From contig OZ024747.1 in assembly GCA_964016885.1 (NCBI GenBank), positions 35,340,001-35,404,000 on the forward strand: a DNA stretch of 64,000 bases, read 5' to 3'. This DNA is from Eledone cirrhosa (taxonomy: Eukaryota). Each line of letters opens with the position of its first letter. Position 1 is the stretch's first letter. Shown here piece by piece: positions 2,336-54,466 of this stretch. The position numbers and the translations under genes are program-made. The notes below the pieces were generated by a model. The model ran no database searches, was not told the DNA's origin, and was given only the letters and a program-made list of their open reading frames with translations.

Positions 2336-2535
2336 AGGAAATTGTTCAAAACCCCGACGGCAGAGCTCAACCCGTTTTGACCGCTATTTCAGGACTCAGA
2401 GTCCAGAAATTGCCGTCGAAACGGTTTGATCTCTGCCGTCGGGGTCTTGAACAATTTCCTATTACCCACTCTACTACTCTAAGTAGTGAGCACTGCGTTT
2501 TGGTACACCTGGTTCCTCACCACACTTCCTTCGTT
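2336..2535 (+). mobile_element. Short fold-back PLE terminal-repeat fragment in (TA)n with the 3' half of a hammerhead
   Basis: Inverted arms ~2336-2395 / 2402-2462, then a unique tail to 2535; (TA)n on both sides. Contains GAAA-CGGT-ttgatctct-GCCG-TC. Homologous copy at 54288-54466 (-). Confidence 0.65.
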
Positions 2536-2586
2536 ATATATATATATATATATATATATATATATATATATATATATATATATATA

Positions 2587-2870
2587 TTCGAAATATTAAT
2601 AAATGAAGACGTTTACATAATCAAAATATATGTTTTATTATATATATTTCGGAGCTACTGTGCTGTTTTTTCAGTACTGATGAGGACGTACTGAAAAAAA
2701 CAGGACAGTACCTCCGAAATATATATGATAAAACATGTATTTTGATTATGTGAACGTCTTCATTTATTAATATTGCGAATAATATTAACAACTCCAGAAA
2801 ACCTTGCTCTAGAGTGCTTTTAATCTATTGTAAAACTATATTCATATGAACCATATTAATCTTCGGTTAT
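2587..2870 (+). mobile_element. Fold-back PLE terminal-repeat fragment with a hammerhead core
   Basis: Inverted arms ~2587-2677 / 2688-2781, then a tail. CTGATGA(2677)-GGAcGTACTG...CAGTACcTCC-GAAA(2716)-TATATAT; the 5' strand of stem I is lost at the inversion. Confidence 0.7.
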
Positions 2871-5399
2871 ATATATATAGCTCCAATTAGTTGAGCGCTC
2901 TATGATGTAACCGATATAGTGGAGAAGAGAGAACCGAGCCACCAGCTACACCCGGTAGTTCCCGCTACCATGGGGATGGAAATCCCTGATACTGGACGGA
3001 CATAAAACTAACTTTAGGCAGGATAAATACGCGGAAACAAAAACAACCATAAACCCCTATTTTCATGCACCAAATTGCATTTGAACAGAAGCCCCCTCAA
3101 GTCAATCTATATATGGAAAAATTGACAATCATATTAATCATGTATCTCCTATCTCATTTTGCATATATGTACTGTATGTATTTTTTGTATTTATTGGATA
3201 TTTTTTGTGTATGTTTTTTTTGTGAATTTTATATGTTTTTTTTTGGGGGGGGGGGTTTCCATGTGATGGAAATTCTAACTATGTACCCGCCTAACTACTA
3301 CCTTTCATACTGTAATTTACCCTCCATTCTACAGTACGGTACTATCGCCCAGTATGTAGATAATATATCTGTAACATTAATACCCCTTTCAACACATCTT
3401 ACTTAAACATCTCCCTACGTAGTAGATAGTATAGGTGCACATATTTTTTTTACTCACCTCAATCTATACTTTTACTCACTTCAATCTAGACTCTCACTTG
3501 AACATTTTTTTAATTTTTAAATTTTAATTTTTGATTTCTGATTTTCGATGTTTAATGTTTAGTTTTAATTTCCAACTCTCATTCATAATTTCCACTGTGA
3601 AACCATAATACCTAGAATTAAGTATATTTTCTCTTAGAGGTTGACGGTCAATTATACTGACCATGCTTAATGTGGGGTAGTATTGAGACTTATTGATAAT
3701 CATACCCTCCCACACCCTCTAGCTTTCGGCTGACTGCCACTGACGGGGTGGCTAGCAGTAAGCTATATATTACAGGCCTGAATAGGTCATTGTTTGGTTG
3801 AGAGGGGCAACTGCCTAGGCGAAATTCGTTGAACTCTGCGGTAGTAATGGTCAACTTCCTTCGGACCTGCGCCTGCGTAGATCGGTGGGGGTGAATTGGT
3901 ACTCACAAGGGAACGGACGAAGAACCCAAGAGCACACACTTCGTCCGTTCCCATCTCGATTCAATTTGGATTGAATCGGAAACATAATCTTATTTTGTAA
4001 CAAGCTGTTAGACGATGTAGCGGCACTGGCGCACGCAACAGTGTTGCCACTGTCGCCATTGAAATATATATCACAGCATTATTATTAAAGGACTTGAACA
4101 TCGGAAACTATTTCGCTTTTCCTTATTATATATATATATATATTTCCAGTATGTCCGTATAAGCCTTCTCCTTAGTTCTATATGAATTTAAGAGACTATA
4201 TTTATGACTGAATTTCCTATTCAAATAATTTAGTTCCTTCCGTTGATTGTATTGTTATGGATATTCTACACGTTCAGTAGCTTAGGTTAACCCGTATAAA
4301 CACGTATTAGAATGGAGGTTGTGTTTCAGAAGTTTTTAATCTTAATCCTGTGTCTACTTTTAAGTTTGTATTATCATTGTAGGCTTAACAATGTCCATAG
4401 AAACATATTTACACGTTTCATTTTAAATATCTCCAAATATATATTACAAATAGGTTGCTTTTAAAACATTATAAAGAGAAAGGCTTTGGGTGAATATACT
4501 AAGACATATGTTATCACGGATTGCTTTAAATCAGAGTAATATAAAGCCTTTGTTGAATACGCTGCGTTTAATCCTAATTCAGCTTATAATGCAAACAATT
4601 AGAAATATCAACATTATCGGCATTTTATTCTCCTTCCCCTACTTCTCCCTCTTCTTCACCACTACTTCACCCTCTTCCTTCTCATCAACATCAGCAGCAT
4701 CATTGCACCCAGCAAAAACATCACCGTTACTATTCCAAACGAGCTTTCATCGTGATTATCCTTGTTACAATCACAATGTCCCGGTTTCTATCCCATTGCA
4801 GTAATAGAACGTCTTCAGCATTTTGTCATTAAAAGAAGTGCTGTATGTATAGAAACCAGGCTCGCTGTCTTTAATTCGGTGTTTTATCTACGTTTACCTA
4901 CTGTCATGAATCGTGGTGTTGTCTTCATCTACAACTCTTTCTCACTTCCATTCTCTCATTTTCTATTCTCCTCTGGAGTAAATATGCTGTATTCAGACCT
5001 GGAGAGGGATGGGTTGCTCCAGATTTAAAAATTGCTCTAACAACGCCGCATGTAAATACGGTGCCCCAACCACTCACTCATCAATTACGGGATCGTGCAC
5101 GTATGGTATTTGAAACTGTCTCGCGATGACTGAACATGTAGAAATTAGTGTAGCAATCCTCTGACTGCAATATACTGATTTTCTTTAGCGGAACTTGTTG
5201 AATCTTTTATCAATATTGACACTTACATGGATTTGCGCCTTATGTTTCTGTTACTGCATTATTTATCGAACTGTCTAGCTGTGAAAGTATGACCAAATGT
5301 ACAATGAAGGAATAAACTTGATTTCATGTATATATTTGATGATACTCAGTTTATAGAAATTTGTGTTTTGTGTGTTTTATCACTTGGTCTCTACTGGCA

Positions 5400-6245
5400 T
5401 TGCCTGTTGTGCGGAACATCTATTCAAAACTCTTCTCTAAAGAAGAGTAATAAGTACTGAACAATTTTATTAGCAATGTTGTTTGCAGAATATTTAAAGC
5501 CAAGCTGCAACACATTCAACATGAACTAGAACAAATATGGAAATCAGATCTATGTAACCGTGATATTGTATTGATTCACCAAGAGAAAAAGAACAGGAAA
5601 AGAGTAACAGAGAAATGTAAATATGACATACATCTGAACATACATAATTCTGAAACGTATCAGTGTGTAACTTTGTTGACTGAATATTTACATAGCCACT
5701 GTCCACAAACATTGGTGTTTGACGTGATCTATTTTCAGAAAGGAAATAACTGATTGATTCCAATGAACTGAATGCATTATTATTAATCGTTTTATCCGTG
5801 CTAGTAGGGAAGTGGATACTAGTGAGTATTAACCTCACCAGATGCTAGATTGAAGATATCGTAAAAGCAACTCATATCATCTTGATTACAAAAATTCATA
5901 TATCAACCATTTAATTTATTCGCCCACTGCATATACACACATCTACTTGGCAGTGCACTGTCACCGTATTGTTTTAAAAGCCTCCGATGATTTCCAGCCC
6001 TTGACACATTCCGATCAGCGAAATCGGATCACTACTTTTTGGTCCCCCTTGTTAGACACTGCTAGCCGAGAATCCATGTTTACACTGCAACCTCATTGAG
6101 AAAGCTGGAGCTCACAAGCTCAAACTTCGATCACCTGACCACAATAGTATCCCATATAAGCATGCAAAGGAGAAGGCATTGTAACAAAGCTAAGGATATA
6201 TTATGGCAACAGAGCAGATATTTCTTACCCTCCTATGTTACATTC
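5400..6245 (-). pseudogene. Possible heavily decayed class A GPCR-like fragment (TM5-TM7)
   Basis: A stop-interrupted minus frame reads RFRIMYVQMYVIFTFLCYSFPVLFLLV...ANNIANKIVQYLLLFFREEF, resembling TM6 (FxxCxxP) and TM7/helix 8 (NxxxNPxxY...FR). Pattern resemblance only. Confidence 0.2.
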
Positions 6246-6319
6246 TTATATATATATATTCGAAAAACTGACATTACATTTATTATTATTATTATTATTA
6301 TTATATATATATATATATA

Positions 6320-53198: not shown

Positions 53199-53497
53199 AT
53201 TAATAAAAGAAATTCCAACTTTGTCTGATTTACTCGTTTTATTTACAATCCTTTAAAATGTATAAAGGTATTAGAATGAAATAGTATGGTAGAATATTAA
53301 ATGTTAAGTGTTAATTGGACAAGTACTTTCACTACTTTTGCAATCTTCAGCTTCATATTCTGTGGTGATAGTACATGTTCAATTAACACTTAACATTTAA
53401 TATTCTACCATACTATTTTATTCTAATACCATTATCAATTTTAAAGGATTGTATATAAAACGATTGAATCAGACTCAGTTGGAATTCCTTTTATTAA
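53199..53497. repeat. ~130-bp inverted repeat with a decayed hammerhead-like core in the spacer
   Basis: Arms 53199-53327 / 53370-53497; the minus strand at 53320-53350 reads CTGAAGA-TTGCAAAAGTAGT-GAAA-GTACT. Confidence 0.65.
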
Positions 53498-53602
53498 TTT
53501 ATATATATATATATATATATATATATATATATATATATATATATATATATATATATATAATAAATAAATTATACAATTATCAAAGTTGTGTTCAAACCAT
53601 TT

Positions 53603-53654
53603 AATAGCTGACAATCGTTTCTTCCAAACTCTCGTTTGGATTCATCGGAGCATT
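53603..53654 (-). ncRNA. Hammerhead motif with a CCGATGA core
   Basis: AATGCT-CCGATGA-aTCCAAAC[GAGA]GTTTGGAa-GAAA-C[GATT]G-TC^AGCtATT. Confidence 0.7.
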
Positions 53655-54287
53655 ATCAATGTTTGTACATATAATTAACCTCCTATTCAACTGAACAATA
53701 ATATAGATACATATAAATTGATGGTGTGAGCAACAGTTTCGTATTTACAGGGTGGAATGAATGTGACATATATTTTACGAGAATTGTACAATAATTGTAC
53801 AAACATTGAAGTTCAAATTCAAGTTATAATTAAATTAAAATCAAAAGCACGGAGTGGAATACATGCAACAGATAAAATAAGAGAATAGTCCAATTATTAA
53901 AGAGGCATTGAGAAAGTAGTTTTGAGAAAGGAATATATATATATATATATATATATATATATATATATATATATATATATATATATATATATATATATAT
54001 ATATTTGCGAAGAATGAACGATGACGTGAACTTACCCTCAAAAACACTTTCTGGGCCATGTAAGGAACACTTTTGGTTATTTATGCCCTTGAGAATCCCA
54101 ACCGGGCGAAAGGTACGTAGGTACTGTTATAAATAAACCTATATTAACGGTCTGTTCTCCGATATGTTACTTTTCCACATATATATATATATATATATAT
54201 ATTTATATATATATATATATATATATATATATATATATATATATATATATATATATATATATATATGTATATATATATATATATATA

Positions 54288-54466
54288 TAACGAAGGAAAT
54301 GTGGTAAGGAACCAGGGGAACCATAACGCACCAAAGTACTCAATACTTGAGGTAGTAGAGTGGGTAATAGGAACCAGTAAGACCCCGACAGCTGAGCTCA
54401 AGCCGTTTCGACGGCTAATTCTGGACATAAGCTTGAGCTCAGCTGTCGGGGTCTTACTGGTTCCTA
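54288..54466 (-). mobile_element. Fold-back PLE-end fragment, same family as 2336-2535
   Basis: Arms 54367-54403 / ~54430-54468; GAAA-CGGC-ttgagctca-GCTG-TC; (TA)n on both sides. Confidence 0.7.

Follow-up and report, generated by a model that had tools for sequence, protein, structure and literature searches.

Twin bulged hairpins of Hydra-clade Penelope-like elements and their likely part in placing the start of reverse transcription

Elements and motif copies in the window

The stretch analysed here in full, hereafter the window, comprises 64,000 nucleotides of the Eledone cirrhosa genome (assembly GCA_964016885.1, contig OZ024747.1, positions 35,340,001 to 35,404,000) and carries several ends of Penelope-like elements (PLEs) with a tail-less inverted arm. 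The original prediction for the window held that their tails share a linear motif, GAGYRYT, 19-31 nt from the point where the inverted arm stops, and that this motif is a cis element, perhaps a recognition site of the element's endonuclease (EN). We found the motif at each position given (2488, 2812, 25119, 47714 and 2893/2894 on the plus strand; 6389, 12876 and 54341 on the minus strand). Read from sequence, GAGYRYT forms the 3' strand of a hairpin with a bulge, found in PLEs of the Hydra clade, that has the form RCUC-(variable stem/loop)-UN-GAGY. The elements and hairpins concerned are as follows.

1..2296: broken Hydra-type open reading frame (ORF) on the minus strand (EN about 872-534); fused to it, on the plus strand, an inverted arm consisting of the tail only (about 2120-2296)
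2124-2194: long decayed hairpin in this tail-only arm, overlooked in the original prediction
2337..2534, plus: fold-back stub of family F1 in (TA)n; the inverted arm begins at 2337, the arm end is 2462 and the tail extends to 2534
2468..2494, plus: hairpin 1 of F1, ACTC...GT-GAGCACT; the bulge is shifted in the fold of this copy
2587..2867, plus: fold-back stub of family F8 with arm end 2781 and, close to the fold, hammerhead core CTGATGAG at 2677
2791..2818, plus: hairpin 1 of F8; upper stem degraded in this copy
2880..2899, plus: hairpin 2 of another family, with 144 exact genome matches; the copy starts at the hairpin base after (TA)6
6323..6752, minus: fold-back stub of family F2; hammerhead core at 6513 (minus) mirrored at 6656 (plus); arm end 6408
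6383..6405, minus: hairpin 1 of F2, ACTC-CAA...TTG-TC-GAGTGCT
12819..22173, minus: single large inverted Hydra-type insertion of family F11; the tailed copy terminates at 12819; hammerhead core at 13002, long interspersed nuclear element (LINE) at about 13545-19190, broken reverse transcriptase (RT)/GIY-YIG ORF at about 19737-21000
21237-22173, plus: tail-less inverted arm of the F11 insertion
12870..12897, minus: hairpin 1 of F11b, ACTC-CAGTT...AACTG-TT-GAGTGCT
23490..25180, plus: 3' part of a Hydra-type PLE of family F11a with EN remnant, 3' untranslated region (UTR), decayed hammerhead and tail; inverted arm not in the window
25098..25125, plus: hairpin 1 of F11a, ACTC-CAGT...ACTG-TA-GAGTGCT
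47551..47764, plus: old fold-back stub, arm end about 47688; the left arm adjoins a GT/CA repeat, not (TA)n
47697..47720, plus: decayed hairpin 1; relatives mostly ACTC-TAC...GTA-TT-GAGT
54290..54464, minus: fold-back stub of family F1; arm end 54367
54335..54361, minus: hairpin 1 of F1, ACTC-TAC...GTA-TT-GAGTACT

Including TA microhomology, arms end at 2462, 2781, 6408 and 54367, and the older fold-back at 47551-47689 ends at about 47688; tails of the window elements measure about 72-86 nt. The ORF copy of the element at 1..2296 ends tail-less just left of the window. Local fold-backs were recovered at 2462, 2781, 6408, 54367 and, in decayed form, 47688, whereas the sixth one proposed, at 12897, is not local: 9 kb separate it from its inverted arm at 21748-22173, both being parts of a single large LINE-interrupted insertion. 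Two further motif copies had been reported. The one at 25119 does sit in a tail, without an inverted arm of its own in the window, and the one at 2893/2894 exists but belongs to another family, of which it is the second hairpin.

The grouping into about five families was borne out (2462 with 54367; 2781; 6408; 12897 with 25119; 47688). Tail alignments gave z scores of 8.6-14 within groups (8.6-9.8 for the tails of 2462/54367 and 12897/25119) and at most 3.4 between groups. As a literal string, GAGYRYT occurs at chance level in the window (52 matches against 48.3 +/- 7.8 expected), and the 19-31 nt spacing does not generalise, since only one of 34 non-window tail families has GAGYRYT at 15-35 nt (0.14 expected, P 0.16). 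The CTCCA/CTAC run described ahead of the motif is present, not as a linear run but as the 5' strand of the hairpin whose 3' strand is the GAG motif. The motif does lie within a conserved cis element linked to the arm-end position. Because the tails outside the motif are unalignable between groups and the structure covaries, this element is not just residual common ancestry.

The hairpin and its carriers

In the hairpin, a CTC strand pairs with GAGY, a 2-nt bulge lies on the 3' side, a variable stem stands above it, and an unpaired ACUNU-like flank follows. The CTC/GAG pairing was recognised in the window tails before other DNA was looked at. A sample of 1.254 Mb of the same genome (the window plus 119 stretches of 10 kb) was then screened independently of the motif for inverted repeats in which one arm abutted (TA)n and the other bore a 20-250-nt tail. 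The 92 repeats obtained formed 36 clusters, 34 of them without a window member. CTC-stem-TN-GAG was found near the arm end in 12 of these 34, against 0.19 expected from dinucleotide shuffles and none on the reverse strand. As the descriptor had been loosened from ACTC/GAGT to CTC/GAG after an early look at the data, this test was only half blind; some of the negatives are not true tails, two have TTC variants, and two hairpin-positive clusters have window relatives that the detector overlooked. Among 32 hand-picked own-genome hairpins, the 2-nt register pairs in 30 and other registers in at most 7 (one entry, F19, is mis-anchored). The closing pair alternates between A-U (14) and G-C (12), the CTC-to-GAG distance ranges over 12-111 nt owing to a loop insert, and literal GAGYRYT is present in 16.

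Furthermore, a protein alignment of 17 of 65 homologues was used for a metagenome search, in which the best 78 of 382 matching loci represented 43 families. CTC...GAGYRY followed the hammerhead or preceded the ATG in 37 of 39 testable families, in a sequence-only search without shuffle control. The bulge began with T in all 63 metagenome hairpins, in a search that did not require pairing, and the pair above it was Watson-Crick in 57 of the 63 (C-G 40, T-A 15), compared with 2, 3, 9 and 11 in registers 0, 1, 3 and 4. The 3' flank reads GAGC-ACU-N-U, with the T after N in 56 of 58 hairpins, and GAGCACT is nearly invariant in these marine relatives (55/63). Of 45 leaders that run on into the next ORF, 24 have two hairpins, 16 one and 5 none, and both hairpins lie within about 190 nt of the ATG. 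By eye, two hairpins were also recognised in the published consensus Hydra-1_Ajap and one at the 3' end of Hydra-2_Amil and of Hydra-2_Ajap, placing the structure in coral and sea-cucumber Hydra sequences.

Six clusters link hairpin tails, with no (TA)n in between, to endonucleases that have the CxCX5C linker but lack CCHH, a combination that is diagnostic of Hydra according to excerpts of PMC8557442. Three single discordant links (clusters 19, 7 and 1) may be read as nested insertions. From ORF motifs and target, the carriers would form part of the Hydra clade. A single intact ORF of 811 aa in locus L287 encodes a telomerase-like RT and then a C-terminal GIY-YIG EN, the latter recognised by its VYxC...YIG motif only. 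Its structural model (pLDDT 82.8) best matched TERT, which supplied the top nine hits. Pfam gave no useful family and no EN match for the PLE ORFs, and a PDB sequence search returned nothing below E 0.17. The motifs CxCX5C, CxxC and CxH appear as CNCPIRTNC, CNLC and CNH in L139 and as CNCRNKANC, CRLC and CNH in L287; DKT replaces DKG in the F1, F11 and F17 ORFs, and the RWK motif is seen as RWR or RWT. A CTGANGA...GAAA hammerhead core was found by pattern at 13002, 6513 and 2677 and in many metagenome loci; it is degenerate in F1, and no canonical core was found downstream of the F17 ORF. (TA)n ends were present in 54 of 56 F1 copies and 31 of 34 F17 matches.

F17 is a very young family with intact ORFs in L291 (G000:C3:51804500-51812500) and L287 (C4:13864500-13872500), and at least 87 places are identical across an 80-aa query. 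Both of its hairpins have loop inserts of 70-105 nt, and its 3' UTR is a long AT-rich tandem repeat. Separately, in the Neptune-type tail of the L042 8133 family a structure beginning about 5 nt beyond the arm end can be drawn by eye, in which GTTTC faces GAAAC and a 2-nt bulge sits on the 3' side.

Second hairpins and the two insertion ends

Given the frequent double hairpin in metagenome leaders, the window families were expected to have another hairpin immediately beyond the end of the tail. Patterns made up of the tail end and CTC...GAG only, which are blind to run-on copies lacking a hairpin, gave 366 genome matches against 0 in the control for F1 (2462/54367), 319 against 24 for F11 (12897/25119) and 124 against 1 for F2 (6408). 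The sequence continued as that of the same family in 97, 96 and 99 of the first 100 matches listed, respectively, and nearly all of those continuations had the T-N bulge and a pair above it, neither of which was part of the pattern. In the loci examined an ATG follows hairpin 2, with Hydra-type ORF pieces for F1 and F11. Reading run-on copies without any pattern also showed hairpin 2 in F17 (five places), L145, F3, F19 and F10, where single-copy cases could be nested tails, and showed none in one run-on copy of F25. Hairpin 2 was not found for the families of 2781 or 47688 (best 40 matches).

Two preliminary readings were discarded. F17 had seemed an exception, with no hairpin within 1.5 kb of the EN; its leader carries both. 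A hairpin after the Neptune-type tail in L032 had been considered as hairpin 2 of that family; it gave only 10 heterogeneous genome matches, several of them nested Hydra tails, and the family may have no run-on copies.

Junctions with (TA)n were mapped in loci that had not been selected by their ends. All 196 junctions, at 25 ends from about 16 families, fell between -12 and +1 of the first base of a hairpin, and an offset of -6 is compatible with 134 of them and with 21 of the 25 modal intervals. A TA dinucleotide peak occurs at -8..-6 in the metagenome leaders as well. Ends track the 5' base of the hairpin (about 6 nt), whereas their distance to the GAG varies widely. There are two discrete 3' ends: 15 of the 54 F1 ends were short, 38 long and 1 elsewhere, with F11, F2 and F17 similar, and the inverted copy uses the short one. 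Since each end lies about 6 nt before one of the two hairpins, the tail length equals the spacing between them, and hairpin 2 is absent from almost all inserted copies. Among 148 tailed arms, 30 stop at -16..+20 of hairpin 1 and 4 at -30..-17 (alignment edge effects were uncontrolled), which is suggestive of one cDNA stalling where the other began.

Several loci show further arrangements. Head-to-tail F1 arrays with a period of about 3.54 kb occur at G000:C1:91476594-91487262 and C1:437200348-437210982. L310 and L312 contain tandem arrangements of short units whose leader, beyond hairpin 2, connects back to the usual 5' boundary of the arms, as template jumps would give. At L345, L346 and G000:C28:85355407, Neptune-type ends are joined straight to Hydra tail-only pieces a few nt before hairpin 1. 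L353-L360 and window positions 2880-3300 represent a family with both hairpins and then a leader in which none of the 8 loci read shows a recognisable ORF; it may be a non-autonomous derivative of Hydra.

Two other fold-backs of the window lack the GAGYRYT motif. The stub at 53199-53498, with a tail to about 53160 (minus), has a hammerhead core at 53350 (minus) and no bulged hairpin, and its family links to a CCHH-type endonuclease in L149. The near-perfect fold-back at 50033-50337 has one arm on (TA)n, and the sequence into which its other side continues resembles a mariner transposase remnant; L057 7775 is a similar case. Decayed copies of one type of APE-RT LINE lie at 13545-19190, 32698-42000 and 55997-63471. 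An abundant repeat of 180-200 bp, similar to a short interspersed nuclear element (SINE), often occupies AT-rich spots within PLE UTRs; its window copies are listed below. An Rfam scan of the window returned 38 weak matches, none at gathering score and no hammerhead among them.

6795-6974: SINE-like repeat
8485-8867: SINE-like repeat
21553-21760: SINE-like repeat
46832-47027: SINE-like repeat
47785-47982: SINE-like repeat
55620-55844: SINE-like repeat

Model, alternatives and known systems

The computed features are two hairpins, two 3' ends about 6 nt before them, a spacing equal to the tail, and covariation with a 2-nt bulge. We consider it likely that the twin hairpins, lying between hammerhead and start codon, each dock the RT and thereby place the start of cDNA synthesis about 6 nt 5' of the structure. 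The GIY-YIG domain would nick both strands of (TA)n. One free end would be extended from the hairpin-1 site, giving the tail-less arm, and the other from the hairpin-2 site, giving the tailed arm, which would copy hairpin 1 and never hairpin 2; a few nt of UA microhomology might aid priming. Head-to-head joining of the two cDNAs would then produce the fold-back. Run-off would account for short stubs, and template jumping or tandem read-through for the copies that bear an ORF. Since hairpin 2 lies beyond the end of most copies, the pair at work is probably the one in the transcript's 5' leader. The absence of hairpin 2 from nearly all inserted ends implies that its action takes place on the template, or else on an intermediate subject to later trimming. 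A precedent exists in the Poseidon PLE RT, which starts at two internal RNA sites bounding the tail and extends both target strands (excerpts of PMC11167929). The wider proposal, that a twin RNA docking code conserved across marine animal phyla places the RT active site 6 nt upstream of each hairpin and lets one transcript serve both nicked strands, we regard as an even bet.

Several observations weigh against this docking model. Folding energies of single hairpins are weak (z -0.3 to -1.6), just 4 of the 8 copies in the window adopt the 2-nt-bulge fold, and above the bulge many second hairpins have no more than a single pair. Either strand can form the stem (82 versus 83 of 89), and the G-U to A-C counts in its upper part (8:1 in the own genome, 5:3 in metagenomes) do not tell which of the two is used. 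Exactly -6 is excluded by 62 of the 196 junctions, the offset is -6 +/- 2, blurred by microhomology, and the consensus ends of Hydra-1_Crog and Hydra-1_Amil deviate. Four hairpin-less tail families link to CCHH-type endonucleases yet show two ends, which means that the hairpin is not a universal PLE signal. Finally, PAc initiates inside a stem-loop that is AC-rich, without target homology, in the published portions seen of PMC11167929.

A structural version of the original prediction would have the hairpin act on single-stranded cDNA, or as an extruded DNA hairpin: the cDNA would be made from beyond hairpin 2 and then trimmed by the GIY-YIG EN about 6 nt from a hairpin base. The equal folding of the antisense strand would suit such trimming, as would the ascription of the tail to EN-mediated resolution in excerpts of PMC8557442 and the tail required by the D. 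virilis EN for plasmid cutting, as cited in those of PMC11167929. However, it requires an unseen longer intermediate at both ends, G-U exceeds A-C on the sense strand by 13:4 overall (a weak signal), and in vitro PAc RT initiates straight at the two internal sites (PMC11167929, excerpts); we think trimming unlikely. The hairpins might instead direct RNA cleavage or 3'-end formation about 6 nt upstream, followed by ordinary target-primed reverse transcription from two RNA ends. Identical end positions would result, and Anolis RNA-seq read ends coincide with the two sites in the parts seen of PMC11167929. But cleavage would sever the hairpin from the template to which the RT must be recruited, and in the same source PAc initiates internally on uncut RNA, which makes this course rather improbable.

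A function of the hairpins in translation, transcription or RNA stability within the 5' leader, or functionless inheritance, with the match to ends being secondary, would agree with their position close to the ATG and with every carrier belonging to one clade. It would hardly lead 25 ends from about 16 families with differing spacings to fall between -12 and +1 of a hairpin base, nor explain flanking tails that are unalignable between groups, and we hold it very improbable. The linear form of the original prediction, a double-stranded DNA site cut about 25 nt away by an I-TevI-like enzyme, fares worst: it is largely refuted, and the cis element is what remains of it. The window distances of 19-31 nt and the 55 of 63 GAGCACT in marine relatives had favoured it, and GAG-YR-CTC would be palindromic, but the C completing the palindrome occurs in only 29 of 58 hairpins while the next T occurs in 56. 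A DNA ruler is at odds with CTC-to-GAG distances of 12-111 nt while ends follow the CTC side, about 6 nt from the hairpin 5' base; with the literal motif in just half of the own-genome hairpins; and with covariation, which requires a single strand. In addition, hairpin 2, the signal that matches the tailed end, is missing from almost all inserted copies.

No published description of the hairpin was found in literature listings and abstracts, which excluded subscription papers, Repbase reports and picture-only supplements. We regard it as a real cis signal of a known PLE clade and as probably unpublished. The hairpin bears on how PLEs, the closest retroelement relatives of telomerase, choose internal start sites and acquire a one-armed tail. 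Being a short, covarying RNA signal whose offset from both ends is fixed, it allows this question to be put directly to the test, with the intact F17 ORFs as a source of reagents. The hairpin also offers an annotation rule for Hydra-clade ends. If the docking code is true, shifting a hairpin of 25 nt could reprogramme start sites, and if the hairpin is portable, a small tag could steer a two-strand target-primed enzyme to any RNA.

Among known systems, I-TevI-type GIY-YIG homing endonucleases have only the nuclease fold family in common with these elements, which show no fixed linear distance from motif to end. The L287 model is most like TERT, and a helix of RNA gripped by the RT would determine the bases to be copied. 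In telomerase, the template-boundary helix lies 5' of the template and stops copying, whereas the hairpin described here is situated 3' of the start, whose position it would define. The bulge of hepadnavirus epsilon templates protein priming; here the start lies outside the stem, priming would be from target DNA, and there are two copies. Epsilon is otherwise comparable as a bulged stem-loop near the RNA 5' end that binds the RT and sets priming (excerpts of PMC3346311), a functional analogy only. Poseidon_Ac (Frangieh et al. 2024; PMC11167929, excerpts) is alike in having two internal starts downstream of the hammerhead that bound the tail, in cutting and extending both target strands, and in its AT-rich target. 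The closest match is the Hydra clade of C-terminal EN+ PLEs (Craig et al. 2021; PMC8557442), with which the present elements share a single ORF, DKT, the CxCX5C linker without CCHH, C-terminal CxxC/CxH, a putative hammerhead, the (TA)n target and an inverted truncated copy with a one-sided tail. In the portions seen, that description contains no hairpin downstream of the hammerhead and gives tails of 30-40 nt, compared with 60-180 nt here, where some units exceed 3 kb.

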